NCBI GenBank assembly: GCA_009929265.1
Contig: SAAU01000001.1
Span: forward strand, 58,245 to 122,244
Length of the DNA: 64,000 nucleotides
Direction: 5' to 3'
Source: Alphaproteobacteria bacterium
GTDB lineage: Bacteria > Pseudomonadota > Alphaproteobacteria > CASFRQ01 > SAAU01
Shown: piece after piece, positions 38,690-64,000 of the stretch
How the letters are laid out: every line of letters begins with the position of its first letter
Position numbering within the stretch: position 1 is the first letter of the stretch
Notes under the pieces: model-generated
What the model was told of the DNA's origin: nothing
What the model saw: the letters and a program-made list of their open reading frames with translations, nothing else
Database searches by the model: none
Made by a program: the position numbers and the translations under genes

Positions 38690-38757
38690 GTTATTTTATT
38701 AACAAGCTATAAAAGAAGGTTAAATTTATTTTAGCCTTCTTTTTTTATGGAGGAATT

Positions 38758-38985: not shown

Positions 38986-39084
38986 CAACTAAAACAAGAG
39001 AAGAATTAGAAAAACTTTTTTCTTCTTTGCCGAAAACTATAAAAGAAGAAAAACATAAAGAGGGGGAGAAATCCTCAAGTCATT

Positions 39085-39519
39085 TTGGAGAAATTAGCTT
39101 CCCTTTATCAGGTTTCATTTCCATCAAAGCCCCCTCTTCAAAAAGGGGAAAATAAGGATAAACCCCTTCTTCAGAAGGCTTTATCTTTACTAAAATCCTT
39201 TGATGACGCGGTTGATGAAGCGGGGACAAAAAAGCACCCCTTCTTTAATGACGTTTCTTTAGAAATGGCTTCCCTTTTGAAAAATAAGCTCGTCTCCTCT
39301 TTGGAAGAGGCTTATGAAAAAGCCGTTTGGCTTAACCCAAAAATTAGAAATTCTTTAATCGAAGAAAAAACGCTTCAAACAATAAAGAAAAAAGTCGAAG
39401 AATCCGAAAAGGCCAAGGAAGCCTCCTTTTCGGTTAAGGGAAAAATGACTGGACAATCAGATCTTTCAAAGCTTTCAACGAGAGATCTTTTGGAATTTCA
39501 ATTCCGGAATTTAGACTAA
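39085..39519 (+). CDS. hypothetical helical phage-module protein (possible scaffold)
   Basis: 144 aa, alpha-helical and Lys/Glu-rich. An overlapping ORF at 38983-39156 in another frame may mean a frameshifted single gene. Confidence 0.2.
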   Translation: MEKLASLYQVSFPSKPPLQKGENKDKPLLQKALSLLKSFDDAVDEAGTKKHPFFNDVSLEMASLLKNKLVSSLEEAYEKAVWLNPKIRNSLIEEKTLQTIKKKVEESEKAKEASFSVKGKMTGQSDLSKLSTRDLLEFQFRNLD

Positions 39520-39546
39520 ATTTTAACTTAAAAAAAGGAAAACAAA

Positions 39547-39795
39547 ATGAGTAATTCAAATTATAATGATATTTTTACGACAACATTAGAAAGCAGAACA
39601 GGAAAATTGGCTGATAATGTTTCCGATAGCAACGCTCTTCTTTCTAGATTGAGAGAAAAGAAGAATATGGAGAATATCCAGAAACTACCCTTCCAGAAGA
39701 TGGCACTTGGTCCAATTATGTTTCAACAGGTTCTTCTGGAAGTGGGACTGTTTTGGCGTTGCGCTTTAAAAAAAATAATCGAGAAACACGTATGA
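39547..39795 (+). CDS. hypothetical phage-module protein (82 aa)
   Basis: The ORF is co-directional within the phage block. Confidence 0.2.
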   Translation: MSNSNYNDIFTTTLESRTGKLADNVSDSNALLSRLREKKNMENIQKLPFQKMALGPIMFQQVLLEVGLFWRCALKKIIEKHV

Positions 39796-39840
39796 AAAAC
39801 ATTGCGTTAAACTACTTTATTAAAGTAAAGGAGGAAGAAA

Positions 39841-40191
39841 ATGTCGCATAAAATTACCCCTGATGGGATTTCTATTACGCAAGGAGATTCTCTATATCTT
39901 CCTATTACTTTTAATGGGATGGATATTACGAATGCCACCTTAAATATGCAGGTGAGCTCTCAGGATTTGAAGACCCTTTTCATTGATAAGAAAGTCTCAA
40001 CACATATCGATGCTGCAAACGGGAAAACGGCTCTTAACTTAATGCCGTCAGATATAAATATTCCCGTTGGCGACTATGTGACAGATATGGAACTTTGCCT
40101 TTTAGATGGTCAAATCTTGACCTTTTACCCTGAAAGAACAGAAAAACAAGCCTTTTTTAGAGTCCTTGCCCAAGTGACAAAGGAGGAATAA
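39841..40191 (+). CDS. hypothetical phage structural protein (beta-rich, 116 aa)
   Basis: AGGAGG-like RBS (AAGGAGGAAGAAA) sits before the ATG. Predicted beta-strand-rich composition. Confidence 0.25.
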   Translation: MSHKITPDGISITQGDSLYLPITFNGMDITNATLNMQVSSQDLKTLFIDKKVSTHIDAANGKTALNLMPSDINIPVGDYVTDMELCLLDGQILTFYPERTEKQAFFRVLAQVTKEE

Positions 40192-41112
40192 ATGTCTGAA
40201 ATGAATTTATTTTTTGATGAAACAACGGGATTAAGCTTGGACATCAAAGAAGAAGCCTTAGACGTCTCAATAAATGAGGCAGAATTAACTGTATATCCAG
40301 AAGGCCTTAGCTTTATTCATAATGGAGAAGATGAAATAAAGGCCTTTGTTGAAAAGGTTTCAAAACCCGAGCTCAATACTTTTGTTTTAGAAGAAAAAAA
40401 GCCTGAATTAACAGCGTTTACTCAAGAAAAATTAACTGCGTTAGGCACTCAATATCAAACCTATAACACTCAATTAAATCAGCAAATAGATGAGAATAAG
40501 TCCGAAATGGAAGCCCTTTATAGCGCAACAAATACGCTAAAAGAAGAGGCCGCTTTACAAAAAGAGAAAGCCTTTCTTTGGGCGACAAAAATGGATGGAG
40601 AGGTTGAGGAAGGCCAAGGGTATAGCTCAAAATACTATGCATCGCTTTCCGATGAAAAAGAAGACAAGTCAAACAAAATTGCCCTTTTTCATGAAACGCC
40701 AGATGATACGCATTATCCTTCCGAAAAGCTGGTTTATGACGCTTTAGCCAATAAAATAAATTTGGAGGCGTCAAATCTATCTGATTTAGGTAAGAAAAAT
40801 TTGTCAGAATGGTCTCTTCCTGGGGACAGTTTTATAAATGTGACGCCAATTGCCTCCGGAGGAACTTATACAGCACCAAAAAATGGCTATTTTTCTTTTT
40901 TAGCAACAGCTCTTGATTCAACGGCCAGTATGATTTGCTTTAATGATGAGAGGCGGTTTTATCAATCGGTTTTTTATTGCAATGGATCGTCCCTTTTCCT
41001 CGGGCTAACAATTCCAATTCGGCAAGGTCAAACCATAACCTTTAGTTTTAAGAGTATCGAAAATCTGAATGTTTCATTCATCTATACAAAGGGAGAAGAG
41101 CTATGTTTATAG
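40192..41112 (+). CDS. hypothetical phage structural protein (306 aa; capsid or receptor-binding candidate)
   Basis: An acidic N-terminal half is followed by a beta-rich C-terminal region. It is translationally coupled to the upstream ORF (stop-start TAAATG). Confidence 0.25.
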   Translation: MSEMNLFFDETTGLSLDIKEEALDVSINEAELTVYPEGLSFIHNGEDEIKAFVEKVSKPELNTFVLEEKKPELTAFTQEKLTALGTQYQTYNTQLNQQIDENKSEMEALYSATNTLKEEAALQKEKAFLWATKMDGEVEEGQGYSSKYYASLSDEKEDKSNKIALFHETPDDTHYPSEKLVYDALANKINLEASNLSDLGKKNLSEWSLPGDSFINVTPIASGGTYTAPKNGYFSFLATALDSTASMICFNDERRFYQSVFYCNGSSLFLGLTIPIRQGQTITFSFKSIENLNVSFIYTKGEELCL

Positions 41113-41465
41113 GCTATCAAAATGGGAAAATTGTAGCTCAAGCTTTAACACAAGAAATTCTTGAATCCAAGCTTTGCGTTTCATTTGATGAAATTGAAGA
41201 GACAAGTCAAAATGTGATTGAAAAAGAAGGAAAACTTTATCTTGAAAATGAAATACCTTTAACGACAAAAGAAGAAATTGAAGAAAAAAGAAAATATCTT
41301 TATCAAATAAAAGTCGACTGTTTAACAGCCGAAATTTCAAGATTAAGAGACGAAATTCAAACTTTAGAAATTCAAGAGAAAATAGCAGATTTAATTTCAA
41401 AAAGGAATGAAATTGTTGATGAAATAAAGCTTCAAAATCCTTACCCAGATGAAGGAGAAAGCTAA
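41103..41465 (+). CDS. hypothetical coiled-coil protein (120 aa)
   Basis: Heptad-like E/K/I-rich sequence. It overlaps its neighbours by a few nt. Confidence 0.2.
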   Translation: MFIGYQNGKIVAQALTQEILESKLCVSFDEIEETSQNVIEKEGKLYLENEIPLTTKEEIEEKRKYLYQIKVDCLTAEISRLRDEIQTLEIQEKIADLISKRNEIVDEIKLQNPYPDEGES

Positions 41466-41728
41466 TGGCCACAAAATCAGAAAATGCGCTTTTAGCTCGA
41501 ATTGATGAGCGAACTTTAGAAATTCAAAAAAAGCTAGATAAACATATCCTTTTGATGGATTCGCTTTCTATAAAGGTGAATGAGCACGAACTTATTTTAT
41601 TTGGAAAAAAAGGAAATGATGGGCTGATTTCAAAAGTTGAATATCATGACAAAATTTTACTTAAAGCCATTGCTATTGGAGGGTTTTTACTTGTTTCTTT
41701 TGAATTTTTGAAAGGGGTTTTATTATGA
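41465..41728 (+). CDS. holin-like small membrane protein (C-terminal TM)
   Basis: 87 aa with a single C-terminal TM segment (AIAIGGFLLVSFEFL). It overlaps the endolysin start by 4 nt, which is the classic position for a holin or antiholin. Confidence 0.3.
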   Translation: MATKSENALLARIDERTLEIQKKLDKHILLMDSLSIKVNEHELILFGKKGNDGLISKVEYHDKILLKAIAIGGFLLVSFEFLKGVLL

Positions 41729-42078
41729 ATTTTTTTACAAAAAAAGAGCTTTCTTGCCCTTGTTGTGATTCCTATTTTTTCAAAGAAGAAACTTTAGAAA
41801 TGCTAGATGAAGCCCGAAAAAGGGCAGGGATTGCCTTTATTATCTCAAGCGCTTGTCGGTGCGAAAAACATAATAAAGAGGTGGGCGGAAGCCCGTTATC
41901 GGCGCATAAAACAGGGGAGGCTGTGGATCTTATTTTTCAAAATTCAAACGAGGCTTTTCTCATTTTGGAAAGCCTTATTTTTGTTGGATTTAGGCGGATA
42001 GGAATCAATTTCAAAAAGGGATTTATTCACGTGGATTCTTCAAAAACACTTCCCCAAGAGGTGTTATTTCACTATTAA
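41725..42078 (+). CDS. endolysin, peptidase M15A-type (L-alanyl-D-glutamate / D-Ala-D-Ala peptidase fold)
   Basis: Zn-ligand pattern: SACRCEKHNKEVGGSPLSAHKTGEAVDL (H-x6-D) and a later FIHVDS His. The protein is 117 aa. Confidence 0.7.
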   Translation: MNFFTKKELSCPCCDSYFFKEETLEMLDEARKRAGIAFIISSACRCEKHNKEVGGSPLSAHKTGEAVDLIFQNSNEAFLILESLIFVGFRRIGINFKKGFIHVDSSKTLPQEVLFHY

Positions 42079-42586: not shown

Positions 42587-42779
42587 AGAAAAAAATGCTG
42601 TTTTAATAAGAGAAACCCTAAAGATATTTTTTTATCTTAATGTTTTTTAATAACTCTTTGAATTCATTTTCAAAAAAATGTTACACTTTTTTTAAAAAGA
42701 TGCCTTTTTTAAGTTGATTATTTCGAAAAAATATTTATCCTTCTTGTTATTGTATCTTAAAACTTTCAAAGGAGGCATT

Positions 42780-43259
42780 ATGACCGATGAAGCTGCGTTA
42801 GAACAAACAAGAAAGGCCATTCAAAAGTGGAAAAAGAAAAGAGGTTCCCTTATTATGGCTTTGCATGAAATTCAAGGAATTTATGGCTATGTTCCTTGGG
42901 ATCATGCAAAAGTTGTAGCCGAAGAAATGGGGGTGGCTTTGGCCCGTATTTACGAAGTTTTAACCTTTTATAATTTCTTTAAGCTTGAATCTCCGGGAAA
43001 ATATATCATTTCTGTTTGTGATGGAACAGCGTGTCATATTAAAGGGGGCGCTTCGGTTATTGATGCTTTTGCAAAACATTTAAATATCAATCCAGGGGAA
43101 ACAACGCCTGACCGCCTTTTTCACATGCAAATTGTGCGGTGTTTAGGCTGTTGTGGATTGGCCCCTGTTGTGGTTGTAAATGGGAAAACATATGGAAAGG
43201 TCTCTCCTGCAGACGTTCCAAGTATTATTGATGAATGGAAAAAGAAGGAGGCCCTCTAA
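42780..43259 (+). CDS. hydC: [FeFe]-hydrogenase NuoE-like subunit (thioredoxin-like [2Fe-2S]; HydC/HndA-type)
   Basis: The NuoE family Cys pattern reads CDGTACHIKG...CLGCCGLAPV. The ATG at 42780 follows AAAGGAGG. The TAA stop overlaps the next ATG as TAATG. Confidence 0.8.
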   Translation: MTDEAALEQTRKAIQKWKKKRGSLIMALHEIQGIYGYVPWDHAKVVAEEMGVALARIYEVLTFYNFFKLESPGKYIISVCDGTACHIKGGASVIDAFAKHLNINPGETTPDRLFHMQIVRCLGCCGLAPVVVVNGKTYGKVSPADVPSIIDEWKKKEAL

Positions 43260-45070
43260 TGGATGAACTTACTCCAGAAATGAAAGAAAAGTTAAAGAAA
43301 CTCTACGCCACACAACGAGAAAACCTTGTTAAGATGAAGGAAGAGTTTTTGGTAAAAAAAGACTCCTACATTGCCTCTATTTACACCTGTAATAGCACAG
43401 GATGTCACTCTGGCGGGGCAGAAAATGTAATTGATGCCTTTAAGGAATCTTTGGAAATTTACGGTCTTCAAGATAAAGTGCGGATGGTGTCAACGGGATG
43501 TATGGGGTTGTGTGCACACGGACCTTTGGCGCGTGTTGAAATTAAAGGGCAAAAGCCTTTTCTTTATAAAGCCGTTGATGGCATGCTTGCTAGATTGATT
43601 GTAGCCGAGCATCTTCTTCCTGCTTTGAAAGCTTTAAAAGAGGGGAAAGCTGAAAACTTTGAAGTTAATGCTTTCTTAAAACAAAGAGAGCTTTCATTAG
43701 ATTTACCTTTCTTTACAAAACAAAAGAAAGTTGTCTTGAAAAATTTAGGGCACTCTGATCCAGAAGATTTTGGCGAATACCTAGCAACGGGTGGGTATCA
43801 AGCCTTTATTAAAGCTCTTGATACCATGACTCCAAAAGAAGTGCGCGATGTTATCCGTGAAAGCGGCCTTCGTGGACGTGGGGGTGGGGGATTTCCTACC
43901 GCCAAAAAGTGGGATTTACTTGCTGCTGCAACAGGAGATGAGAAGTTTGTCATCTGTAATGGCGATGAAGGGGATCCTGGCGCCTATATGGATGCGTGTA
44001 TCTTAGGGGGCGGCGCACATAGCGTTTTAGAAGGCATGATGATTGAGGCCTATGCCACAGGGGCAACACATGGTTGGTTCTATGTTCGGGCGGAATATCC
44101 TTTGGCTATTGAACGGGTTGAACAAGCCTTAAAACAAGCCAAAAAATATGGCCTTTTAGGAAAAAATATTTTAGGAACAGATTTCAGCTTTATGGCCGAG
44201 CTTCGTTATGGCGCAGGAGCTTTTGTCTGCGGTGAAGAAACAGCTTTAATGGAATCTTTGGAAGGTAAACGAGGCACCCCTCATCCACGTCCACCATACC
44301 CTACAGAAAAAGGACTTTTCGGGAAACCTTCGGCTATCAACAATGTTGAAACTTTGGCCAATGTCCCTGTTATTATTAGGGAAGGGGCAAAATTCTTTAA
44401 CTCTGTTGGAACAGAAACCAGTAAAGGAACCAAGGTTTTTGCCTTAACGGGGAAAGTTAAACACAGTGGATTGGTTGAAGTTCCTATGGGGATGAGCGTC
44501 TCTGAGATTGTTAATGATATTGGAGGGGGCACAAGCTCTGGAAAACCGTTTAAGGCGGTTCAAACAGGGGGCCCTTCTGGAGGGGTTATTCCTGCCAATA
44601 AGCTTGATATGCCTATTTGCTATGAAGAGCTTAAGAAAATCGGCTCTATGATGGGATCTGGCGGAATGATTGTCATGGATCAAGATGACAGTATGGTTGA
44701 AATTGCCAAATTCTATTTATCCTTTACGGTTGATGAATCTTGCGGAAAGTGTGCGCCTTGTCGAATTGGCGGCTATCAAATGCTTGAGCTAATGAAGAAA
44801 ATTGCAAGAGGAGACGGGAAAGAAGATGATATTCAAGAGCTGATTGAAATCGGAAGTGTGATGAAGAAAGCTTCTCTTTGCGCTTTAGGTCAAACAGCAC
44901 CAAACCCTGTTTTATCGACTTTAAGATTTTTTAGAGAGGAATATGAAGCTCTCCTTAAAAAAGATGACGATGAAGAAGAGGGCTGTCAAGCTGCTCTTCC
45001 CAAAAAAACAGATAAAGAAGAAAGCAAAGAAAAGCCAGAATGTGCAACGTGTTCCGGATGTGGGAGATAG
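43259..45070 (+). CDS. hydB: [FeFe]-hydrogenase NuoF-like NAD(P)H/FMN subunit with N-terminal [2Fe-2S] domain (HydB/HndC-type)
   Basis: An N-terminal 4-Cys thioredoxin-like module is present. The FMN/NADH site reads GRGGGGFPTAKKW. The NuoF 4Fe-4S motif reads ESCGKCAPCRIGG and the C-terminal end reads CATCSGCGR. GAAGGAGG sits 7 nt before the ATG at 43259. Confidence 0.85.
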   Translation: MDELTPEMKEKLKKLYATQRENLVKMKEEFLVKKDSYIASIYTCNSTGCHSGGAENVIDAFKESLEIYGLQDKVRMVSTGCMGLCAHGPLARVEIKGQKPFLYKAVDGMLARLIVAEHLLPALKALKEGKAENFEVNAFLKQRELSLDLPFFTKQKKVVLKNLGHSDPEDFGEYLATGGYQAFIKALDTMTPKEVRDVIRESGLRGRGGGGFPTAKKWDLLAAATGDEKFVICNGDEGDPGAYMDACILGGGAHSVLEGMMIEAYATGATHGWFYVRAEYPLAIERVEQALKQAKKYGLLGKNILGTDFSFMAELRYGAGAFVCGEETALMESLEGKRGTPHPRPPYPTEKGLFGKPSAINNVETLANVPVIIREGAKFFNSVGTETSKGTKVFALTGKVKHSGLVEVPMGMSVSEIVNDIGGGTSSGKPFKAVQTGGPSGGVIPANKLDMPICYEELKKIGSMMGSGGMIVMDQDDSMVEIAKFYLSFTVDESCGKCAPCRIGGYQMLELMKKIARGDGKEDDIQELIEIGSVMKKASLCALGQTAPNPVLSTLRFFREEYEALLKKDDDEEEGCQAALPKKTDKEESKEKPECATCSGCGR

Positions 45071-45075
45071 GAAAT

Positions 45076-46836
45076 ATGACAAAAATGATTAAGCTAAAAA
45101 TTGACAATCTCGACGTTGAAGTCCCTGAAGGAACCTCCATTCTTGATGCGGCTAAAAAGGTCCAAGTTGAAATTCCAACTTTATGTTATCACCCCGATTT
45201 GGAGCCAACAGCAGCTTGTGGGCTTTGTATTGTAAAGGCCAATGGACGTATGCTTCGTTCTTGTTGCACCCCGGTAATGGAGGGAATGGAAGTCATTACG
45301 CGGGATCCTGAAATTGTAAATGAACGCAAAACTGTGCTGAAGCTTATTTTAAGTCGGCATCCCAATGAATGCTTGACCTGTCTTAAGAATGAAACATGTG
45401 AGTTGCGTCAAAAGGCGGCCGAATTTGGTTTCCGGCAAGATAATTTCAAGAAAATCTCTCTTTCGCACGAAGATGCACCTTTGGATTGTTCGACGCGCTC
45501 TATTGTCTTGGATCCAAGAAAGTGTATTTTATGTGGCCGATGTGTTCAAGTTTGCCAAAATGTTCAAAATGTTTGGGCTTTGTCCTTCTTGAATAGAGGG
45601 TTAAAAACAAGAATTGCTGTCGCAGGGAACTTAACTTTGGATGAATCTCCTTGTATTAAATGTGGTCAATGTGTGGCTCACTGTCCAACAGGGGCTTTGA
45701 CAGAGTATGATGATACAGGAATTGTCTGGCGGTCTTTAATGAATAAAGAAAAATATTGTGTGGCTCAAATTGCTCCAGCTGTTCGGGTTGCCATTGGGGA
45801 AGCCTTTGGGAAAGATCCAGGGGAAATCTCAACGAAAAAGCTTTATTCTGCCCTTCGTCGATTAGGCTTTGACGCCGTCTTCGACACCAACTTTGGCGCC
45901 GATGTGACAATTATGGAGGAAGGCTCCGAGTTCGTGGAACGTTTTGCTCATGGAAAAGGCTCTTTACCTTTGATTACGTCTTGCTGTCCAGCTTGGGTAG
46001 ATTATATGCAGAAATATTATCCTGATATGATTGAGCATTTTTCAACTTGCAAATCTCCGCATGAAATTGTGGGCGCTTTGACAAAGACCTATTATGCCGA
46101 AAAGAAAGGCCTAGATCCAAAGGATATTATGATGGTTTCTATTATGCCTTGCACGGCCAAAAAATATGAAATCAGACGCAATGAATCTATGTATGCAAGT
46201 GGATGTCAAGATGTTGACGTGTCTTTAACAACCAGAGAACTTGCCCGAATGTTAAAGCAAGCTGGAATCGTCTTTGATGAATTAAAAGATGAGGAAGCAG
46301 ATAGTCCTTTAGGGGAATACTCTGGCGCGGGAACAATCTTTGGATTTTCAGGCGGCGTGATGGAAGCAGCTTTAAGAACGGCCTATCGCTTGGTTGAGGG
46401 AAAAGAGCTTGATGACGTAGACATCACCCCATTAAGAGGCGTGGACGAAGGCATTAAAACAATGGAAATGCCTTTGGGCGGCAAAACTTTGAAAGTGGCC
46501 GTTGCTCAAGGAACTGGAAATGTTGGAAAGCTCCTTGACGAAGTGCGTGATGCCTTAAATAGAGGGGAAGAATCTCCTTACCAATTTATTGAAGTTATGG
46601 CTTGTCCTGGCGGATGTATTGGGGGCGGTGGACAACCCACTGGTGTCACGAATAAAGTTAGAAAAGAACGAACAAAAGGGCTTATTATGGACGATAAGAA
46701 GTCTTCTATTCGGAAATCTCACCTTAACCCTGACGTTCAAAAACTCTATGAGGAGTATTTAGATAAACCTTTAAGTGAAAAGGCGCATCACCTTCTTCAT
46801 ACGACATATAACGCGGTTCCTGTTTATAAAAAGTAA
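45076..46836 (+). CDS. hydA: [FeFe]-hydrogenase catalytic subunit
   Basis: The N-terminal plant-type [2Fe-2S] reads C..C.C...C. A His-ligated [4Fe-4S] reads HPNECLTCLKNETC. Two ferredoxin-type CxxCxxCxxxCP motifs follow. All three H-cluster signatures are present: L1 TSCCPAW, L2 MPCTAKKYE and L3 MACPGGCIGGGGQP. The ATG at 45076 follows GGAG. Confidence 0.9.
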   Translation: MTKMIKLKIDNLDVEVPEGTSILDAAKKVQVEIPTLCYHPDLEPTAACGLCIVKANGRMLRSCCTPVMEGMEVITRDPEIVNERKTVLKLILSRHPNECLTCLKNETCELRQKAAEFGFRQDNFKKISLSHEDAPLDCSTRSIVLDPRKCILCGRCVQVCQNVQNVWALSFLNRGLKTRIAVAGNLTLDESPCIKCGQCVAHCPTGALTEYDDTGIVWRSLMNKEKYCVAQIAPAVRVAIGEAFGKDPGEISTKKLYSALRRLGFDAVFDTNFGADVTIMEEGSEFVERFAHGKGSLPLITSCCPAWVDYMQKYYPDMIEHFSTCKSPHEIVGALTKTYYAEKKGLDPKDIMMVSIMPCTAKKYEIRRNESMYASGCQDVDVSLTTRELARMLKQAGIVFDELKDEEADSPLGEYSGAGTIFGFSGGVMEAALRTAYRLVEGKELDDVDITPLRGVDEGIKTMEMPLGGKTLKVAVAQGTGNVGKLLDEVRDALNRGEESPYQFIEVMACPGGCIGGGGQPTGVTNKVRKERTKGLIMDDKKSSIRKSHLNPDVQKLYEEYLDKPLSEKAHHLLHTTYNAVPVYKK

Positions 46837-46890: not shown

Positions 46891-46954
46891 GAAAATACAT
46901 TGACAGGAAAACTAATAATTGATAAAAATCTATGAAATACACGAAAGGTTTTTT

Positions 46955-47719
46955 ATGAGATATTTTTTCTTAATTCTTTTTTTTCCTTCTCTTTTAATGG
47001 CAGCGGAGGATTCTGCGTGCGTTTTTCAACATATTGACAAATGTTATTCTTGTGATGAGTTAAAAGCAATTGGACTTTCTGTTTCTAAAGAAGAAAAAGA
47101 TTCAGATGCTTTAAAAAAATGCAAAAATAGAAATGTTTATATAAGTTGGATGATTCCCCATGTTTTCTCCGTTTTAAAAAAGTGTCCAAAAGAAATGCCT
47201 TTGTTAAATGGCATGGGCCTTTGTTTTTCCTGCGCTGAAAAAGAACCTGTTTATCAAAGTTTTAAAAAGGATTTCCCTTTTTCTGGAGAATATACCTGCC
47301 CAAATAGGGTTTTGATAAGAGAAAATTCTTTCTTTGCTTACTCATATATAAGCCAATGCCCAAAAGACAAACCTTTAGTGGGATATCACGGAGATTGCTA
47401 TAGCTGCGATACGCCTCTTTCCATTAACATTAGTGAAAATGAAGTTTTATGTCGCAGATTTTGCGATGGAAAGCGCTTTTTTAATGGAGGATACTGTATG
47501 TCTTGCTCCTTTGTTCCCCTTAACGAATATCCGAATAAAGATTTTTGTATTTCTTGCGGGGGATATTGGGATAAAACGCATTGCAGGGAAAGAAGGGAAG
47601 GGGATGACCTTCAATTCTGCCACAAAAATAGCGATTGCGCAAAAGATGAGATTTGTTTTTATAATAGATGCAAAGCCTTTACAGAAGAAGAAAAAAAATC
47701 CCTTTATGGAAAGTTTTAA
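46955..47719 (+). CDS. secreted Cys-rich repeat protein, paralogue A
   Basis: The signal peptide reads MRYFFLILFFPSLLMAA. At least 24 Cys lie in repeated CPK(D/E)xPL...CxSC units. A conserved C-terminal module runs CRRFCDGKRFFNGGYC...CISCGGYWDKTHC...CHKNSDCAKDEICFYNRCKAFTEEEKKSLYGKF. Confidence 0.5.
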   Translation: MRYFFLILFFPSLLMAAEDSACVFQHIDKCYSCDELKAIGLSVSKEEKDSDALKKCKNRNVYISWMIPHVFSVLKKCPKEMPLLNGMGLCFSCAEKEPVYQSFKKDFPFSGEYTCPNRVLIRENSFFAYSYISQCPKDKPLVGYHGDCYSCDTPLSINISENEVLCRRFCDGKRFFNGGYCMSCSFVPLNEYPNKDFCISCGGYWDKTHCRERREGDDLQFCHKNSDCAKDEICFYNRCKAFTEEEKKSLYGKF

Positions 47720-47722
47720 ATT

Positions 47723-48637
47723 ATGAAAAAAACACTTTTATTTGCTTGCGCTTTTTTAATCTTTTCTTCACCCCTTTTACAGGCCAAAGAAAAACCTAAA
47801 TGCGATTTTTATCGCTACGACGGGTGTCATTCATGTGAAGAATTACAATCTTTTATAATCACAAGAAATAATCCAGAAACAAATTTAGGAAAATGCAAAA
47901 ACAGATCTATTTCTTATACAGGGTATCGGGATTCTTTAGGGTATCTTTCAGAGTTAAAAACCTGTCCAAAAGGCTATATTAAAGATTTTTATAGAGATTG
48001 TGTAAAAAAAATAGACTTTATAAATAAGTATCCTGGGCCTAACACTATTGTAAATCAAGAAAAATGCCCAAAGGATAAACCTCTCTATTTAATCGAGGAA
48101 AAACGGTGTGAAAGCTGTGACTTTCCGGACCCTGTATTTCTTTCTTCAGAGGCTAATAACCATAAAGCAGGGGCTGAATATGTATGCAAAAATCGGGTAT
48201 TTTTTAGCTTTGGAGCAGCATGTCCTTATTCCTTTTTCAGTCAATGTCCAAAAGATAGCCCCCTTCTTGATGATAAATTAAATTGCTTTAGTTGTGAATA
48301 TGATGGCCCCATAGAAACACGTAATAACCCCTATTTTTGTCGTAAATTTTGCGATGGAAAGCGGTTCTTCAACGGCTTTAAGTGTTTAAAATGTTCAAAA
48401 GATATTAACTATATTCCAGATAAAGAAACTTGCGTTTCTTGCGGAGGATATTGGAACAAAACCTTTTGCCGGAAAAAAAAGGAAGGGGACGCCTCTCAAA
48501 TCTGTCATGAAGACAGCGATTGTGCAAAAGGAGAAGTTTGTCTTTACGATAGATGTATCCCCTTTACAGAAGAAGAAAAAAAGGGACTTTACGGCATTTT
48601 TCAATCAGACATAGATAAGTTAGAAGAAAATAGATAA
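47723..48637 (+). CDS. secreted Cys-rich repeat protein, paralogue B
   Basis: The signal peptide reads MKKTLLFACAFLIFSSPLLQA. It has the same CPKDxPL...CxSC repeats. The C-terminal module is almost colinear with paralogue A (CRKFCDGKRFFNGFKC...CVSCGGYWNKTFC...CHEDSDCAKGEVCLYDRCIPFTEEEKKGLYGIF). Confidence 0.5.
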   Translation: MKKTLLFACAFLIFSSPLLQAKEKPKCDFYRYDGCHSCEELQSFIITRNNPETNLGKCKNRSISYTGYRDSLGYLSELKTCPKGYIKDFYRDCVKKIDFINKYPGPNTIVNQEKCPKDKPLYLIEEKRCESCDFPDPVFLSSEANNHKAGAEYVCKNRVFFSFGAACPYSFFSQCPKDSPLLDDKLNCFSCEYDGPIETRNNPYFCRKFCDGKRFFNGFKCLKCSKDINYIPDKETCVSCGGYWNKTFCRKKKEGDASQICHEDSDCAKGEVCLYDRCIPFTEEEKKGLYGIFQSDIDKLEENR

Positions 48638-50911: not shown

Positions 50912-51372
50912 TAGAAGATTTTGACTTGTGGGATAAGATTAAGAAATCAATACAACCTATTGATAAAAAAAGTTATATTAAAGAAGATGACTTCCAAAAC
51001 CCCCTTCAATCTTTTGCAAAAAAAATAGCTATCCATCGACATTTTCCAGAGGTTTTATCTTTTAAGCCCGAACGAAAAGAGCTTTCTTTTTCACTAGATC
51101 TTCATGGTAAAACATTGGATGAAGCCTTCTCTTTACTTTCCCATTTTATTGTGGAACATCGAAGACGGGGAACAGAGTTTGTCACAATTATCACTGGAAA
51201 AGGACTAAAGAATGAAGGACTTTTGAAAAAAAATGTTCCTTTATGGCTTGAAAATGAGAAAATAAAAAAGCATATTGTCTCTACGCGAAAAATATTGGAT
51301 TCAAGAGCACAATATGGCTCTTTTTTGGTTTATTTGAAACCGAAAGGTAAGAAAAAAGAATGTATGTATTAG
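50908..51372 (+). CDS. Smr-domain protein
   Basis: The Smr core reads [37 protein letters not shown]. The start overlaps the mltA stop (ATGA). Confidence 0.7.
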
Positions 51373-52706
51373 GGATAGAATCAAGCTGTGACGAAACTGC
51401 AGCAGCCATTGTTTCGGAAAAAAAGGACCTCCTTTCGCATGTCGTTTGGTCCCAGCAGGAACATTTGGCTTTTGGCGGCGTTGTTCCAGAGATTGCCGCA
51501 CGGGCTCATCTAGATAGAATCGATGAGATTGTTCAAGAAACTTTGGATAAGGCGCATCTTACTTTTGATGACTTATCCGCCATTTCTGTCGCCGCAGGCC
51601 CCGGTTTAATTGGGGGCGTCATTGTGGGGGTTATGACAGCAAAAAGCATTTGTGCTGCCAAAAATATCCCTTTTGTGGCCGTTAATCACTTAGAAGGACA
51701 TGCTTTAACGGCAAGGCTAACGAGTGACGTTGAATTTCCATACCTTCTCTTATTGGTTTCAGGAGGGCATTGTCAGCTTCTTGTCGTAGAGGACGTTGGA
51801 AAATACAAAATGCTCGGCACGACGATTGACGATTCGTCAGGAGAAGCGTTTGACAAAGTCTCAAAAATGCTTGGTTTGGGCTATCCTGGAGGACCTAAAA
51901 TCGAAAAAGAGGCCCAAAAAGGCAATCCCAAGCGATTCCGTTTTCCTTCTCCTATGAAGGGCAGGGAAGGGTTTGATTTTTCTTTTTCAGGCCTAAAAAC
52001 AGCCGTTCGTCACCAAATTGAGCTTTTAGGAGACGAAATGACAGAACAAGATATTGCCGATATTTCGGCCTCTTTTCAAAAAGCGGTTTTGGGAAGTTTA
52101 CTTGACAGAGTAAAAAAAGCCATAACGCTTTATAAAGAAAAATATAATGGAAAACACTTGGTTGTTGCAGGTGGGGTGGCCTCAAATCTTGCTTTAAGGG
52201 AAAGTTTAACCTTACTTGCAAAAGAAAACAATTTACAATTTAATGTAGCTCCTGTAAAATTATGCACGGATAACGGGGCTATGATTGCGTGGGCTGGTTT
52301 GGAACGTTTCCGTAAAGGCTATACCAATTCGCTTGACTTCAAAGCACGCCCGAGATGGCCTTTAGAATCACTGAAAAAAGGAGAATACCTTATGAAAATT
52401 ATTAAAGACTCTGAATTTAAAAATACTGTTTTGGAAAATTCAAAACCTGTTGTTGTTGACTTTTTCGCAGAATGGTGCGGACCTTGTCGTCAAATGCTAC
52501 CTATTTTGGAAGAAATTTCAAAGGAAATGGGCGATAAAATTGATATTGTGAAGATGAATATTGATGAAGCTCCAGAAACACCAAATACTTATCAAGTTCA
52601 AAATATTCCAACAATGATTCTTATTAAAGATGGAAAAGAAATTGATAGAAAAGTCGGATCTATGCCAAAACATGTTTTTGAAGAATGGGTTAATTCTCAT
52701 CTTTAG
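51360..52706 (+). CDS. tsaD: tRNA N6-threonylcarbamoyladenosine synthase TsaD fused in frame to thioredoxin
   Basis: Residues 1 to about 340 are Kae1/TsaD ([14 protein letters not shown] and the HLEGH family core, ending RPRWPLESL). No stop follows. The frame continues through AAAAAAGGAGAATACCTT-ATG into a complete thioredoxin with the WCGPC active site. Confidence 0.8.
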
Positions 52707-57301: not shown

Positions 57302-60121
57302 CTACTCTTCTACAGTTTCTGTTTCTGTTTCATTTTCAGAGGATTCTTGCGTTTCTAAAGAAGGTTCTTGCCCTTCTTCTATCGCTTGAGTTTCAACAGG
57401 TTGAGTTTCAACTTCAGTTGTTTGACCTTCTAAATCCTCATCCTCATCATATTCGTCTACACAAGTGACCGAAACGACCTTTTCATCTTTATCCAAACGG
57501 AACAAGATAACCCCTAATGTGTTTCTTCCTGCCTTTTTGATTTGACTGATAGGCATACGAATAAGCTTTCCACCATCTGTGACCATCATCAAATGTTCAT
57601 TGTCCAAAGCAGGCAAAGAAGCAACAACCTTCGCATCTCGTTTTGTCGTATCAATATTTGTGATACCCGAGCCGCCTCTTGAAGTAATCCTGTATTCGTA
57701 AGCAGAAGAGCGTTTTCCCATCCCTTTATCTGTGACAGTTAAAATAAACTCTTCATTTGCTTCCATTTCTTGGAATTCTTCTTCGGTTAGAGACATTGTT
57801 GAATCATCAAATTCAACCGTATCTTCTTCGTCGGCTTCATTCAAAGCGCGGCGTCTAGCATTGGCTTCTTTAAGGTAAGCTTTCTTCTTTTCCGTATCTT
57901 CATCCACATGATTTAGAATGGACATTCCAATAACTTTATCGTCAGCACCTAAACGCATTCCGCGAACACCTGTTGAAGATCGACTTTCAAAAATACGAAC
58001 ATCTGGCACAGGGAAACGAACACATTTTCCGCCTTCTGCAGCTAAAAGAATGTCTTGCTCTTCTGTGCAAATCCGAACGTTAATAAGATTATCATCGTCA
58101 TCCAACTTCATAGCAATTTTTCCGTTAGATTGAACATTTATAAAGTCAGATAATCTATTGCGACGTACAGAACCAGAAGCTGTAGCGAACATTACGCTCA
58201 ACCCTTCACATTCTTCAACATTTTCAGGAAGTTTTAAGATTGTCGTAATTATTTCGCCCTGTTCAACGGGAAGAAGATTGATAATCGCCTTTCCTAGAGA
58301 TTGTGGCGTTCCCTCTGGTAAACGGTAAGCCTTCATCTTATAGACTTTTCCTTTACTGGAGAAGAACAAAAGCGGCGTATGTGTGCAAGCAACAAACAAA
58401 TTGCTAACCACATCTTCTGACCGTGTTGACATCCCAGAACGCCCTTTTCCACCCCGATGTTGTGCGCGGTATGTAGAAAGAGGAACCCGTTTCACATATC
58501 CTGAGGCCGTCATCGTCACAACCATATCTTCGCGTGGGATAAGGTCTTCAATATCTTGCTCAAATTCAGAATCTTCAATCGTTGTTTTCCGAGGCGTTGC
58601 AAAATCATTTTTAACTTGTTCAAATTCGTCTTTCATTATGCCATAGAGTTTTTCTCTTGATGCCAAAATAGAAAGAAATTCTTTGATTTGACCGCCTAAA
58701 TCGGAAACATCGGCATGAATTTTATCTCTTTCCAAGCCTGTCAATCTTTGAAGTTTTAAATCCAAAATAGCTTTTGCCTGTATTTCGGAAAGAAAGTATC
58801 TTCCGCTTTCAACTTTTCTATCAGGTTCATCAATCAATTGAATTAACGGTTCAACGTCTTTTGCTTCCCAATTTTTTGCCATCAAGTTGGCCTTAGCAAC
58901 AACAGGATCCGGCGCTGTTCTAATCATTTCAATGACTTTATCAATATTGGCAACCGCAATCGCCAACCCGACCAAAACGTGAGCTTTGTCACGTGCTTTA
59001 CTTAATTCAAAAGCCGTTCTACGACGAATAACCTCTTCTCTAAAAGAAATAAAGGCCTTCAAAATGGCTTGTAAATTCATTGTTTCTGGACGACCAGAAT
59101 TCAATGCCAAAGAGTTAACCCCAAAACTTGATTGCAATGGCGTATTTTTATAAAGTAAATTTAAAACAACATCAGGATGTGCATCTCGTTTCAACTCAAT
59201 TACAACTCGAACGCCATGTCTGTCTGATTCATCCCGCAAATCAGAGATACCCTCAATTTCCTTATCTTTAACAAGCTTTGCAATTTTCATAATCATAGAA
59301 GCTTTATTAACTTGATACGGAATCTCCGTCACAATAATGGCCATTCTATCTTTTCTGACTTCTTCAAAATGAGTACGTCCCCGTAAAATTACGGAGCCAC
59401 GTCCCGTTAAGGAAGCCAAACGACACCCAGTGTGTCCCATGATAATTCCACCTGTCGGAAAATCAGGACCCGGAACAATTGCAAACAATTCTTCTGGCGT
59501 AATTTCAGGGTTTGCAATCATCTCGATACAGGCCGTCAAAACTTCCCCCAAATTGTGTGGAGGAATATTTGTGGCCATCCCAACGGCAATCCCGCCAGAT
59601 CCATTTACAAGAAGATTTGGAAATCTTGCAGGTAAAACAGAGGGTTCTCTTGTTGTTTCGTCATAGTTAAGTCGAAAATCAATCGTGTCTTTTGAAATGT
59701 CTTCAAGCAAATAAGATGAAGAAGGCGCAAGCTTGGCTTCCGTATAACGCATAGCAGCTGCTTTATCCCCATCCATAGATCCAAAGTTTCCTTGAGAAGC
59801 AATAAGGGGCAAGCGCATTGAGAAATCTTGAGCCAAACGAACCAAAGCTTCATAAATAGAGCTATCCCCATGAGGGTGATATTTTCCCATAACATCCCCG
59901 ACAATACGGGCACATTTCCGAAAAGGCTTGCTATAATCATAGCCATTTTCATGCATAGAATACAAAATCCGCCGATGAACAGGTTTTAACCCATCCCTTA
60001 CATCTGGCAACGCTCTTGAAACAATAACGCTCATCGCATAGTCTAAGTAGGAGCGCTTCATCTCATCTTCAATAAGAATTTCTGTAATTCCTTCTTGTTT
60101 TTCAATTACTTTATCAGTCAC
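57302..60121 (-). CDS. gyrA: DNA gyrase subunit A
   Basis: 939 aa. The active-site region has the Tyr context AMRYTEAKL. GyrA-box/beta-pinwheel CTD repeats are present, followed by an acidic C-terminal tail. Confidence 0.95.
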
Positions 60122-60181
60122 ACAATCACCTATTTTATCTCAATTCAACTAAAAACCTTACAAAAACTTAAAAGCAAAAGT

Positions 60182-60625
60182 TTAGAATGGAATATCATCA
60201 TCAAAAGATGAAGGCTCTTCAGCGGAAGGCGCATCCCATCCTGAGGAAGAATCAGAGCTTCCCATCCCATTTGAAGAACGAGAATCTAAAGAAATAAGTT
60301 CCCCTCTGTAATTTCCAATAATAATTTCTGTTGAATATTTATCTTGACCATTTTGATCTGTCCATTTGCGGGTTTGAAGAGCCCCTTCAATATAGACTTT
60401 AGATCCTTTTTTCATATATTTTTCAGCAAAATCTGCCAAAGCATTGTTAAAAATAACAACCCGATGCCATTCTGTTTTTTCCTGTTTTTGTCCTGATTTA
60501 TCTTTCCAAACATCACTCGTTGCAACAGAAAGTGTTGCAATTTTTTGTCCTGTTGATGTATTTCTAACTTCTGGTTCTTTTCCCAAGTTTCCAAGGAGAA
60601 TAACCTTATTTATACTTCCAGCCAT
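60182..60625 (-). CDS. ssb: single-stranded DNA-binding protein
   Basis: The N-terminus reads MAGSINKVILLGNLGKEPEVR. An OB fold and a Gly/Ser-rich linker are followed by the C-terminal DDDIPF tail. The ATG at 60625 is preferred over the upstream in-frame start. Confidence 0.9.
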   Translation of the reverse strand: MAGSINKVILLGNLGKEPEVRNTSTGQKIATLSVATSDVWKDKSGQKQEKTEWHRVVIFNNALADFAEKYMKKGSKVYIEGALQTRKWTDQNGQDKYSTEIIIGNYRGELISLDSRSSNGMGSSDSSSGWDAPSAEEPSSFDDDIPF

Positions 60626-60831
60626 TTTTACCTCTAAAATTATAGTTATCAAACAGACTTAACATACACTTTTTTCAAGCAGAATAAAAGCTTTTTTATG
60701 AATTTTTTGCATATTTTTTAATTTTTTTTCTTCCAAAGAGAATTCTTTAATGTTTTGAGAAAAAAAAGCCTTTCTCCCATATTTTTCTCTGAAATTTTGA
60801 AAGGGCTTTAGCTTAAGAAAAAGCCTTTATT

Positions 60832-62088
60832 TTAGCCTAAGAAAGACAGGAACACCCCTGCGGCAACAGCCGATCCAATCGCTCCTGCCACATTGGGCGC
60901 CATAGCGTGCATTAAAAGGAAATTTCCCTCGTCTTCTTTAAGAGCTAAGTTTTGCGAAACTCGAGCCGCCATAGGAACAGCCGAAACCCCTGCGGATCCA
61001 ATTAAAGGATTGATTTTATCTTTCAAAAACAAGTTCATAAATTTGGCCATTAAAACGCCCGATGCGGTCCCTAAAACAAAGGCAAACGCCCCTAAAAATA
61101 AAATGAGCAAAGTTTGGGGTTGTAAAAACTCTGTCGCCGTAAGTTTCACCCCAATAGAAAGCCCTAAAAGTAAGGTTGTGATATTCATTAGTTCGTTTTG
61201 AACGCTCTTTGATAAACGATCTGTCACGCCACATTCTTTAAGGATATTTCCAAACATAAGCATCCCAATTAAAGGGGCCGCAGAAGGCACAAAAAACACG
61301 CAAAGCAAAAAACACACAAAGGGGAAAAGAAGAAGCTCTTTTTTCGAAACCGCTCTTTGATTTTTCATCCGAATAAGGCGTTCTTTTTTGGTGGTCAATA
61401 AACGCATAACAGGCGGCTGTAAAACAGGCACCAAAGCCATATAGGAGTAAGCCGCAACGGAAATAGCCCCCAACAAATGAGGCGCCAGCTTTCCAGATAA
61501 AAAGATAGAAGTTGGCCCATCTGCCCCTCCGATAATGGAGATAGACGCTGCCTCTTTAAGCGAAAAGAGGGATCCGCCCGCCCCGCCTAAAGCCATAGCC
61601 CCTAGAAAGGTTCCAAAAATGGCAAATTGCGCCGCAGCTCCCAAAAGGATAAGCTTTGGATTAGAAAGCATCGGGGTAAAATCGGTCATCGCCCCAACGC
61701 CCATAAAAATCAACAAGGGGAAAAGGCCTGTTTTGATTCCAAATTCGTAAATAAAGTATAAAAAGCCCCCTTCCCTTGCAATTTCAAGAGTGGGGATATT
61801 TGCCAAAATTCCACCAAAAGCAATCGGCACCAATAAAAGCGGCTCAAATTTTTTACAAATGGCCAAATACATCAGCCCAAGCATTAAAACAATCATAAAC
61901 AGGCTTTGCATTCCCGCGCTATCTTTTAGAAAATGATACACCCCTGTTTGCGTTAAAAAGGAAGTTATCAATTCTTTTTGGGAAACAAAAAATGGCAAAC
62001 AAATCAAGAGGAAAAGAAAGGCAAAAAAAGCAACTTTTAGTCCCTTTATTTTTTTTAAATTTTCTTGAATAGAAAAGATATTTTTCAC
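60832..62088 (-). CDS. oadB: Na+-translocating decarboxylase beta subunit (OadB/GcdB/MmdB family)
   Basis: 418 aa with about 9 or more TM helices. Family-typical segments include [21 protein letters not shown] and [15 protein letters not shown]. Confidence 0.75.
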
Positions 62089-62112
62089 AATTTTCTCCCT
62101 TAATAAAACACT

Positions 62113-63906
62113 TTATCTTATTATTGCAAGTATTTGATTTTCTTCGACTTGTTCGCCTACTTCAGCTTTAATTTCTTGAACAATTCCTTTGTGTTTTGAC
62201 TTAATCAAAACTTCCATTTTCATCACTTCAATCACAAATAAGGGCGTCTCTAAGTCGACTTCTTCCCCTTTTGAAACAAGAACTTTTGATACCGTTCCAT
62301 TTAAGGGCGAGGCCACTTTGTTTTCTCTTTCGTTTTTTAAGGAAGATTCTACCTTATCCGATTTTTCCTTTTCTTTAGAAGACGCCACCTCTTTTTTTAG
62401 AAAATCAAACGCATATTCTTTCCCATTAACAAAGGCTTTATTTCCCGAAAGCTCCACGTCAAAAGGCTTTTTACCAATTAAAATTGTTTGTTTTTTCAAC
62501 GGTTTTTCCACCCAACGAATGGCCACATTTTTCTTTCCTTGAAGGAAGGCTATCCCCTTTTCCCCGCAAGCAGCAACAATAAAGATATTCTCATCTGTCA
62601 CAGGGATTTTATTGTTTTTCAAGTGCTCTATCGCTGCGTTAATACCTTTTTGAGTATCTTCCTCGTTAATATCCAAAGGCAACCTATCCGTCTTTGGCAG
62701 ATTCATTTGCTCTGAGGCAATTTCGACCACTTTTTCATCGGGCGGCATAGGGGTTTTTCCAAAATAGCCCAAAACCATTTTTCCATAGCCTTCTGCAATC
62801 TTTTTCCACGGGCCAAACATTACATTATTAAAAGCTTGTTGAAAATAAAACTGCGACACAGGCGTCACAGAGGTGCCAAAGCCCCCTTTCCTGACAACTT
62901 CTTCCATTGATTTAATCACTTGAGGAAACTTATCCATCAGGCCATTATCTCTTAGCATTTGGGTGTTTGCTGTCAAGGCTCCGCCTGGCATAGGGCTCCA
63001 AGGAATTTGTGGTTCCACTTTCAAGGCTTCTTTAGGAAGAAAATAGTCCTTCATCGCCTCTTTAAATCTGTCTTCTAACGTCATAATGGCTTGAACATCA
63101 ACATCTAGCTCATAGGCAGATCCCCTCAAAACATGCCAAAAGGTTGCAATATCCGGAGAACATGTTCCTCCAGAAACAGGCGCTAAAGAAAGATCCACCG
63201 TCTGAACCCCCGCTTCAATGGCGGAAATATAACATGCCACAGAAACTCCCGCCGTTTCGTGAGAGTGAAATTGCAATGGAAAATCATCCCCTAATAGGTT
63301 TTTGGCCCGCCGCACTGTTTCATAGACAACAGAGGGAACAGAGGTGCCTGAAGCATCCTTAAAACAAAGAGAATCAAAGGGAATCCCAGAATCCAAAAAG
63401 CGTTTCAAACAGGCCTCGTAAAAATCGGCATTATGAGCGCCTTCACATCCTGGTGGCAAAGACATCATCGTCAAAGTCAACTGGTGGGAAAGCCCTGCGT
63501 CTTTAATGCATTGTCCACTGTAAAGAAGGTTATTGGGATCATTTAACGCGTCAAAATTTCGAATAACGTCCACCCCATGCTTTTTGAAAAGCTTTGCATG
63601 GAGGTTAATCACGTCTCTGGGTTGCGAATCAAGACCGACAACGTTAATTCCCCGCGCCAAAGTTTGAAGTTTTACTTGAGGACCCACCGTTTTTCGAAAC
63701 GCATCCATGACATCAAACGCATTCTCTCCTGTGTATAAAAAAGGCGACTGAAACAAAGCCCCGCCCCCTGATTCAAAGTAGGAAATCCCCGCTTTTGTTG
63801 CCTCTTTCACAATAGGTAAATAGTCCTTTGAAAGCACTCTTGCCCCAAAGGCAGATTGGAACCCGTCTCGAAAGGCCGTGCACATAAAGTTTATTTTCTT
63901 TGTCAT
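62113..63906 (-). CDS. oadA: oxaloacetate decarboxylase alpha subunit-like (5S carboxyltransferase TIM barrel plus biotinyl domain)
   Basis: The N-terminal carboxyltransferase reads TAFRDGFQS...LQFHSHETAGVSVA (metal-binding HxH). The C-terminal biotinyl-lysine motif reads EVMKME within a lipoyl-like domain. Confidence 0.75.
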   Translation of the reverse strand: MTKKINFMCTAFRDGFQSAFGARVLSKDYLPIVKEATKAGISYFESGGGALFQSPFLYTGENAFDVMDAFRKTVGPQVKLQTLARGINVVGLDSQPRDVINLHAKLFKKHGVDVIRNFDALNDPNNLLYSGQCIKDAGLSHQLTLTMMSLPPGCEGAHNADFYEACLKRFLDSGIPFDSLCFKDASGTSVPSVVYETVRRAKNLLGDDFPLQFHSHETAGVSVACYISAIEAGVQTVDLSLAPVSGGTCSPDIATFWHVLRGSAYELDVDVQAIMTLEDRFKEAMKDYFLPKEALKVEPQIPWSPMPGGALTANTQMLRDNGLMDKFPQVIKSMEEVVRKGGFGTSVTPVSQFYFQQAFNNVMFGPWKKIAEGYGKMVLGYFGKTPMPPDEKVVEIASEQMNLPKTDRLPLDINEEDTQKGINAAIEHLKNNKIPVTDENIFIVAACGEKGIAFLQGKKNVAIRWVEKPLKKQTILIGKKPFDVELSGNKAFVNGKEYAFDFLKKEVASSKEKEKSDKVESSLKNERENKVASPLNGTVSKVLVSKGEEVDLETPLFVIEVMKMEVLIKSKHKGIVQEIKAEVGEQVEENQILAIIR

Positions 63907-64000
63907 TTACGCTCTCCCCGATTTTTAAGTTTCGAAAGGAAAATAGCCAAAGCCACCTCATCTAAATTTTCTTTAGACGTGGCAAAAGAGCCCATTATTT

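Follow-up and report, generated by a model that had tools for sequence, protein, structure and literature searches.

The locus at the end of this stretch of DNA raises the question of which biotin-dependent enzyme it encodes, and of what that enzyme says about the life of its host. The stretch analysed, hereafter the window, comprises 64,000 nucleotides of an alphaproteobacterial genome (contig SAAU01000001.1, positions 58,245 to 122,244). An earlier note had read two of its genes as oadA and oadB of a Na+-translocating decarboxylase and, together with an [FeFe]-hydrogenase, as a signature of anaerobic, fermentative energy metabolism. Our analysis indicates that the locus is probably an operon for a Na+-translocating, biotin-dependent membrane decarboxylase of the oxaloacetate decarboxylase (OAD) type, and it is very probable that the encoded Na+-translocating biotin decarboxylase complex is functional. 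This kind of system is already known; what is unusual is the alpha subunit, which comes from a widespread branch without a characterised member. The domain and family matches of the operon and of the hydrogenase are far beyond chance.

The last 3.2 kb of the window contain tightly packed open reading frames (ORFs) on the minus strand, which form a unit of three genes in the order gamma-alpha-beta. The alpha gene (62113..63906, ATG start, 597 aa) and the beta gene (60832..62088, GTG start, 418 aa), the latter for the predicted polytopic carboxybiotin decarboxylase and Na+ translocator, are located exactly where the earlier note had put them. A gamma gene had only been guessed to lie past the window end, and this guess was right: the gene straddles the edge, and its last 31 codons with the stop codon lie inside (63903..64000, minus strand; translation IMGSFATSKENLDEVALAIFLSKLKNRGERK, followed by the stop). 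An exact look-up of the alpha protein gave no match. A homology search with alpha led to L001, a JGI metagenome contig of 3.7 kb (sample 3300014203) that encodes a 99%-identical protein; its DNA is identical to the window across the gamma-tail overlap, and it supplies the whole gamma ORF of 58 aa. The TGA of gamma overlaps the ATG of alpha (ATGA), and gamma is translationally coupled to alpha. Alpha and beta are separated by 24 nt, and an AGGGAG Shine-Dalgarno sequence is found 7 nt 5' of the GTG of beta. Promoter and terminator consensus scans of positions 60100-64000 gave counts at the level of shuffled sequences (6 vs 7.0; 5 vs 4.7) and are thus uninformative on the operon boundaries.

The beta subunit matches Pfam OAD_beta (PF03977) with 5.3e-156 (519.4 bits, cutoff 31.6) and TIGR01109 with 530.5 bits (cutoff 190.6) over model positions 3-354 of 354, and it scores 434 bits against Salmonella OadB (PDB 6iva), the one beta subunit with a solved structure. 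The malonate-type beta model gave only 159 bits vs its cutoff of 597. According to the structural study of this Salmonella protein, Na+ binding or activity of the enterobacterial pump (StOAD/KpOAD) depends on E40, D203, R304, N311, S382 and N412, the mutation of which abolishes it, and Y229, N373 and G377 are required for the structure (PMC7274780). All of these residues are kept in the window beta, the former as E82, D190, R291, N298, S369 and N399 and the latter as Y216, N360 and G364. The protein, with about 9-11 hydrophobic segments, is by its sequence a canonical Na+-translocating decarboxylase beta subunit, in agreement with its previous description as the polytopic Na+ pump subunit. At its N-terminus, it is extended by about 40 aa with one additional hydrophobic stretch, a feature that is also present in at least one relative (L005). 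The complete gamma from L001 matches Pfam OAD_gamma (PF04277) with 33.2 bits (cutoff 27) and has one N-terminal transmembrane helix (residues 4-35).

As modelled, alpha belongs to the superfamily of carboxyltransferases of the pyruvate carboxylase, OadA and transcarboxylase 5S type, with the fold, the metal ligands and the 2-oxoacid residues present. In Pfam, it matches PYC_OADA (1.5e-30), Biotin_lipoyl (PF00364; 5.3e-14, 52.2 bits vs a cutoff of 22.1) and, as a weak match of the barrel, HMGL-like (5.8e-08). In the AlphaFold (AF2) model, calculated with 33 homologues as input (pLDDT 80.9), residues 1 to about 455-470 form the carboxyltransferase (CT) TIM barrel with a helical subdomain, followed by a small four-stranded beta-sheet domain (residues 473-499), a disordered linker (503-525) and a biotinyl carrier beta-sandwich (529-596). 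The model superposes on the CT domains of 5S (1rqb) and of Vibrio cholerae OadA (VcOadA, 2nx9) with TM-scores of 0.82-0.84 and root mean square deviations (rmsd) of 3.4-4.0 A, and its best full-length structural match is the whole PycB chain of M. flagellatus with a TM-score of 0.71. Among PDB sequences, alpha scored 184 bits with 5S, 163 with PycB and 159 with VcOadA. The carboxyltransferase metal site and the EVMKME biotinyl-lysine motif noted before are both present: the former consists of D14 (FRDGFQS), K183 (FKDASG) and H214/H216 (FHSHETAG), and the latter occupies residues 560-565, with K563 (codon at 62218..62220, minus strand) as the predicted biotinyl lysine. D14, K183, H214 and H216 are invariant in 120/120 closest homologues, as are E560, M562, K563, M564 and E565, and the residues that hold the 2-oxoacid (R13, Q17, R85 and T312) are invariant across the same 120 proteins.

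Several observations weigh against the oxaloacetate decarboxylase reading. Alpha stays below every NCBIfam cutoff: the oadA equivalog model (TIGR01108) gave 300.5 bits vs 756.5 and the PycB model (NF006761) 294.9 bits vs 402; the matches to the oadA, PycB and 5S models are full-length. Its CT domain is only 27-30% identical to those of VcOadA, PycB and 5S, whereas these three, with three different physiological roles, are 55-60% identical to one another; for the 120 homologues, the identity to these references is 25-32%. Furthermore, positions that are invariant in the three solved reference chains (Propionibacterium shermanii 5S, M. flagellatus PycB and V. cholerae OadA) are replaced, near-invariantly, across the alpha clade of 120 homologues: RDxHQS by RDGFQS (H16F), ECWGGA by E(S/A)GGGA (W47G), ATFD by A(S/A/L/T)FQ (D53Q), LLRGQNLLGY by LARG(V/I)NVV(A/G)L (Q87V/I and Y92L), KDMA by KDAS (M185A), PGGM by PGGA (M310A) and QIVG by QFYF (I353F, V354Y and G355F). 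These family-wide replacements point to a remodelled pocket for substrate and biotin, and a specificity for oxaloacetate is putative for every member of the clade. The gamma subunit, with 58 aa, is shorter than the enterobacterial one of about 80 aa and contains no histidines, and thus the Zn-binding tail known from Klebsiella gamma is absent. In L089, the one relative with an adjacent Fo operon (alpha 62% identical), the Fo genes atpI-a-c-b-b' of the ATP synthase (1902-4220) lie about 6 kb upstream of the OAD operon. The encoded c subunit (...GMTEAIALY...; GAGMTEAIALYAL) lacks the Ser/Thr of the Na+-binding signature and looks H+-type, so that a Na+-ATP synthase is not supported in this relative. 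Within the window, there was no indication of an oxaloacetate source. Finally, according to a passage in PMC13147460 citing Dimroth & Hilpert 1984, OAD is reversible in vitro.

The replacements are themselves invariant, which indicates that the clade is under strong purifying selection and represents a functional enzyme on a separate deep branch. By its sequence, alpha is not an orthologue of the characterised OadA but a member of a deep clade equidistant from OadA, PycB and 5S. Thus, of the label oadA in the earlier note, the decarboxylase alpha function stands, but the orthology to OadA does not. Members of the clade are named 'biotin attachment protein' or 'biotin/lipoyl-binding protein' by PGAP/NCBI and, in some cases, 'pyruvate carboxylase subunit B' by JGI. 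We found no experimental work on any member of the clade in literature searches that were not targeted at the clade by name, and nothing specific on OAD experiments in Treponema, Planctomycetes, Kiritimatiellia or Victivallis.

The JGI name points to one alternative, namely, that alpha is the PycB of a two-subunit pyruvate carboxylase and that its adjacency to beta is incidental. The PycB and oadA scores are close, and PycB is the best full-length structural match. However, alpha does not reach the PycB cutoff, its gene is coupled to that of gamma, and no biotin-carboxylase domain was found in any ORF of at least 120 aa in the 64-kb window, nor a biotin-carboxylase gene beside alpha in the annotated relatives L002, L003/L004 and L089. 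The cross-species linkage of beta is also decisive here. When one genome per GTDB species was scanned with alpha, 80 loci were obtained whose alpha proteins are 53-67% identical to that of the window; the hosts are Alphaproteobacteria metagenome-assembled genomes (MAGs; yak rumen, rectum and others), Planctomycetota including Stieleria isolates, Victivallis/Lentisphaeria, Spirochaetota/Treponema, Kiritimatiellia, Verrucomicrobiota, Gastranaerophilales, Bacillota and others. In 78 of the 80 loci, a beta gene (detected by tblastn with the window beta) is directly beside alpha on the same strand, and in the remaining two the contig ends at alpha. This adjacency in species of many phyla shows alpha to be a decarboxylase alpha, not PycB. 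The identification of alpha as PycB with an unrelated beta was rejected (no PycA, a canonical beta, and linkage to both beta and gamma); the pyruvate carboxylase explanation is effectively refuted, and the decarboxylase reading of the earlier note survives.

Two further alternatives accept the complex and concern what it does. It may act on another beta-carboxylated 2-oxo acid (e.g. oxalosuccinate or a substituted oxaloacetate) and so be a distinct Na+-pumping class. In favour of this, alpha stands apart from every characterised carboxyltransferase, NCBIfam has no model that names it, and several of the invariant replacements in the pocket change large residues to small ones (W47G, M185A, M310A and Y92L) and small ones to large ones (I353F, V354Y and G355F). 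Nevertheless, the residues for the metal, the C1-carboxylate and the C2-carbonyl (R13, D14, Q17, R85, K183, H214, H216 and T312) are all invariant, and the overall fold is unchanged relative to the references. Some of the changed residues, the His of RDxHQS and the Tyr of LLGY, are on a published list of residues diagnostic for pyruvate carboxylase (PMC13147460). The alpha clade as a new class of Na+-translocating decarboxylases, whose remodelled pocket (H16F, W47G, D53Q, Y92L, M185A and M310A) serves a different substrate or chemistry, is in our view improbable, and we hold another substrate for the same complex to be equally so. The changed His and Tyr positions may lie in the biotin pocket, in which case they would affect the docking of biotin and not the choice of substrate. 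The other alternative is that the complex is reversed in vivo, with a Na+ gradient driving the conversion of pyruvate to oxaloacetate for anaplerosis without ATP, as proposed for some autotrophs. The enzyme has been shown to run backwards in vitro, and such a reversal is under discussion for Chlorobiota and Campylobacterota (PMC13147460); moreover, an ATP-free anaplerotic route might be useful to gut alphaproteobacterial MAGs with reduced metabolism (PMC8199421, PMC8992543). However, it requires another strong Na+ pump, and none was seen in the window; the thermodynamics (about -30 kJ/mol) favour decarboxylation, and the neighbouring H2-evolving hydrogenase fits catabolic formation of pyruvate. 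We therefore consider this reversal very unlikely, somewhat more so than another substrate.

For the Na+-translocating decarboxylase that we prefer, the substrate, the direction of Na+ export and the link to fermentation are inferred by analogy with the established OAD mechanism (Dimroth; PMC7274780) and from the context. Oxaloacetate is likely to be the substrate, and decarboxylation with export of Na+ is the likely physiological direction. The substrate, a 2-oxo-dicarboxylic acid and most probably oxaloacetate, would be bound by the soluble alpha at a site for a divalent metal formed by D14, carbamylated K183, H214 and H216, together with R13, Q17, R85 and T312. The beta-carboxyl of the substrate would then be transferred to the biotin on K563 of alpha's own C-terminal carrier domain with release of pyruvate, and the carboxybiotin would swing to the membrane-embedded beta. 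There, its decarboxylation would provide the energy for Na+ export through the D190/S369/N399 site. The 58-aa gamma would, by its single membrane helix, fasten alpha to the trimer of beta. The Na+ gradient could be used for transport, Na+/H+ exchange or ATP synthesis. Judging from the context, the pump most likely serves fermentation, in which it would supplement substrate-level phosphorylation, and pyruvate and NADH electrons may leave as H2 through the nearby HydABC-type hydrogenase.

Among known systems, OadGAB of Klebsiella pneumoniae, Salmonella Typhimurium and V. cholerae (EC 7.2.4.2; 6iva/6iww, 2nx9) has the same subunits in the same gene order. It shares with the window the beta subunit with all essential residues, the layout of CT barrel, linker and biotinyl domain with the same metal ligands in alpha, and the single-helix gamma of the OAD_gamma family. 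The window operon differs from it in alpha, which is 30% identical to VcOadA in the CT domain, far below the equivalog cutoff, and in whose clade the RDxHQS His, ECWGG Trp, ATFD Asp, LLGY Tyr and KDM Met are replaced, as well as in the short gamma without a His-containing tail and the N-terminal extension of beta with its extra hydrophobic segment. PycB (PDB 5ks8) resembles alpha in the domain order (CT, small beta domain and biotin carboxyl carrier protein), in the full-length superposition (TMq 0.71) and in the similar HMM scores; unlike PycB, to which it is 27% identical, alpha has no PycA partner and is operonic with the membrane beta and gamma. Transcarboxylase 5S of Propionibacterium freudenreichii subsp. 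shermanii (1rqb), with the top score among solved sequences (184 bits), a TM-score of 0.83, an rmsd of 3.4 A and the same metal site, lacks a fused biotinyl domain, and its partners are 12S and 1.3S, not a membrane pump. The decarboxylases MmdABCDE, GcdABCD and MadB have a Na+ channel of the beta type (OAD_beta, TIGR01109) and a small OAD_gamma-like anchor in common with the window. However, the carboxyltransferases of the methylmalonyl-CoA (Mmd), glutaconyl-CoA (Gcd) and malonate (Mad) decarboxylases are acyl-CoA enzymes of the crotonase fold, whereas that of the window is of the TIM-barrel 2-oxoacid type.

In the alphaproteobacterial relatives, the order gamma-alpha-beta is kept, and ssb-gyrA-ppiase lie downstream of it, at some loci after one additional gene. 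Six alphaproteobacterial loci show this arrangement of the OAD operon and ssb-gyrA-ppiase; their GyrA is 73-77% identical to that of the window. This conservation indicates that the operon is an inherited trait of the lineage and not a recent import, and a mobile or horizontally acquired origin was rejected on this ground. Across the whole clade (L005-L084, e.g. L009, L011, L015 and L035), alpha pairs with two types of beta, 51-65% and 29-39% identical to the window beta, respectively. The former type was observed in Alphaproteobacteria, Planctomycetota, Gastranaerophilales and others, and the latter in Victivallis/Lentisphaeria, several Treponema and Spirochaetes, and several Bacillota. The gene order also varies; in Planctomycetota, beta is upstream of alpha.

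The [FeFe]-hydrogenase near the pump, the other part of the signature, was indeed found: its genes lie on the plus strand, 14-17 kb from those of the decarboxylase, and comprise NuoE- and NuoF-like subunits and a catalytic subunit. The first gene (42714..43259) encodes a NuoE-like [2Fe-2S] subunit of the HydC type (Pfam 2Fe-2S_thioredx, 4.1e-48), the real start of which is probably the ATG at about 42780. The second (43235..45070, 611 aa) encodes a NuoF-like FMN/NADH-binding subunit of the HydB type (Complex1_51K, 2e-41; NADH_4Fe-4S, 9.6e-32), and the third (45040..46836, 598 aa) the catalytic subunit HydA, of the M3 type with a CpI-like domain order (Fe_hyd_lg_C, 3.1e-95; Fe_hyd_SSU, 2.7e-23). 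HydA consists of N-terminal ferredoxin-like domains, an H-cluster domain (Fe_hyd_lg_C, 318.9 bits) and a small-subunit-like tail. Compared with the H-cluster patterns L1 (TSCCPxW), L2 (MPCxxKxxE) and L3 (ExMxCxxGCxxG), its motifs are intact: TSCCPAW (position 313), MPCTAKKYE (369) and EVMACPGGCIGG (518). Losey et al. (2020) proposed a GGPSG motif, a Phe near the FMN site and extra Fe-S domains in HydB as criteria of electron bifurcation (PMC7311640). The window HydB is mixed in this respect: GGPSG and GAGAF are present, which is bifurcating-like, but the C-terminus contains only four Cys (C584, C603, C606 and C609) and no 2x[4Fe-4S] domain. No HydE/F/G maturase gene was found in the window.

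Relatives of HydA, including those in alphaproteobacterial MAGs, are 64-82% identical and keep the same three-gene unit; for some of them, the NCBI name is 'NADH-dependent [FeFe] hydrogenase, group A6'. None of the retrieved loci of relatives spans both the OAD and the hydrogenase operons. The longest contig is listed as 58,847 bp for both P0003 and P0122 and as 35,748 bp for both P0024 and P0137, and we regard a co-location of the two operons on one contig in relatives as suggestive only. The HydC-HydB-HydA unit has different, mobile-looking neighbourhoods in relatives (L085, 7632-11752; L087, 2791-6834), with restriction-modification, PcfJ and PLD genes in L085 and a type IV secretion system coupling protein in L087. 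The GC content of the operon in the window is 0.43 vs about 0.35, and the operon may be laterally mobile within the lineage. Directly 3' of hydA, two tandem genes (46919-47719 and 47723-48637, plus strand) encode paralogous Cys-rich proteins of 266 and 304 aa with signal-peptide-like N-termini, repeated CPKDKPL-like and C-x-x-C motifs and no Pfam match. On the other side, a compact phage-like cluster (34869-42078, plus strand) stops about 640 nt short of the hydrogenase operon; it contains genes for a Terminase_3 large subunit, a GroES-like protein, a P22-like portal, a fragment of a major head protein and an endolysin/peptidase. The cluster, which is not of the RcGTA type, may represent a prophage in decay or a different small element that forms particles.

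As for the lifestyle, the earlier note took the pump itself as a signature of anaerobiosis, and this was not borne out. Isolates of Stieleria and MAGs of Rubripirellula and Rhodopirellula, which are aerobic planctomycete genera, contain the same alpha-beta pair, and thus the pump alone is no marker of anaerobiosis. The classical OAD hosts Vibrio, Klebsiella and Legionella also respire oxygen. An anaerobic, fermentative lifestyle is nonetheless plausible, although on a basis other than the pump: the [FeFe]-hydrogenase is intact, and hydrogenases of this kind are oxygen-sensitive; alpha and HydA both have their nearest relatives in MAGs of rumen, rectum and gut samples; and gut Alphaproteobacteria of the orders RF32 and Rs-D84 have been described as having small genomes and reduced, fermentative repertoires (PMC8199421, PMC8992543). 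Since these groups are known from MAG surveys of gut and rumen, such a trait is also less atypical for Alphaproteobacteria than had been claimed. We found nothing specific in the literature on metabolic descriptions of RF32 Alphaproteobacteria with OAD or a hydrogenase. An alternative possibility is that the organism, instead of being an obligate anaerobe, is a facultative or microaerophilic one that uses the pump and the hydrogenase and encodes its respiratory chain elsewhere. The planctomycetes and the oxygen-respiring OAD hosts would fit this, and the window, in which no respiratory genes were found, does not speak either way. However, the oxygen sensitivity of the hydrogenase, the origin of the closest relatives and the small genomes of the RF32-type bacteria make it unlikely. 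Nothing in the window indicates host association.

A precedent for the combination is provided by Melainabacteria, in which a trimeric [FeFe]-hydrogenase and a membrane OAD have been read as a fermentation that produces H2 and builds a Na+ gradient by decarboxylating oxaloacetate (PMC3787301). The pairing is the same, and the Gastranaerophilales carry the same alpha clade, but the host of the window is an alphaproteobacterium; in both cases the reading is based on genes.

The rest of the window is ordinary chromosome, with genes for aminoacyl-tRNA synthetases, mfd, mutL, pgi, a lipopolysaccharide/sugar-modification cluster and SecB/Tim44-like/MltA, an arrangement that we take to be typical of Alphaproteobacteria. 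The mutL gene (11080-12933, minus strand) has a single in-frame TGA at 11998-12000 (...KEASV*GLLIG...) in an otherwise intact frame of 618 codons. This could be a nonsense mutation (a mutator or pseudogene) or a sequencing error; recoding is unlikely, because no in-frame TGA was found in other genes. An ORF of 448 aa (51360-52706, plus strand) joins TsaD, for tRNA t6A synthesis, to a thioredoxin domain at the C-terminus. The surface-polysaccharide/sugar-modification cluster (20451-32770) includes an FdtA-like isomerase, a DegT aminotransferase, glycosyltransferases, a radical-SAM/SPASM enzyme, a hexapeptide acyltransferase and two FabH-like ketosynthases, as well as several ORFs without a Pfam match.

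Taken together, these genes indicate that this alphaproteobacterium, uncultured and low in GC, can generate a sodium-motive force by decarboxylation and dispose of electrons as H2, in agreement with its rumen and gut relatives and with the scant knowledge of anaerobic Alphaproteobacteria of the RF32 and Rs-D84 type. Both the pump and the hydrogenase are kept in MAGs of related Alphaproteobacteria; they are traits of the lineage and not one-off acquisitions, and as such would help in the design of cultivation conditions. The alpha clade is very large and extends over many phyla; the biochemical characterisation of one member would fix the annotation of thousands of genes.

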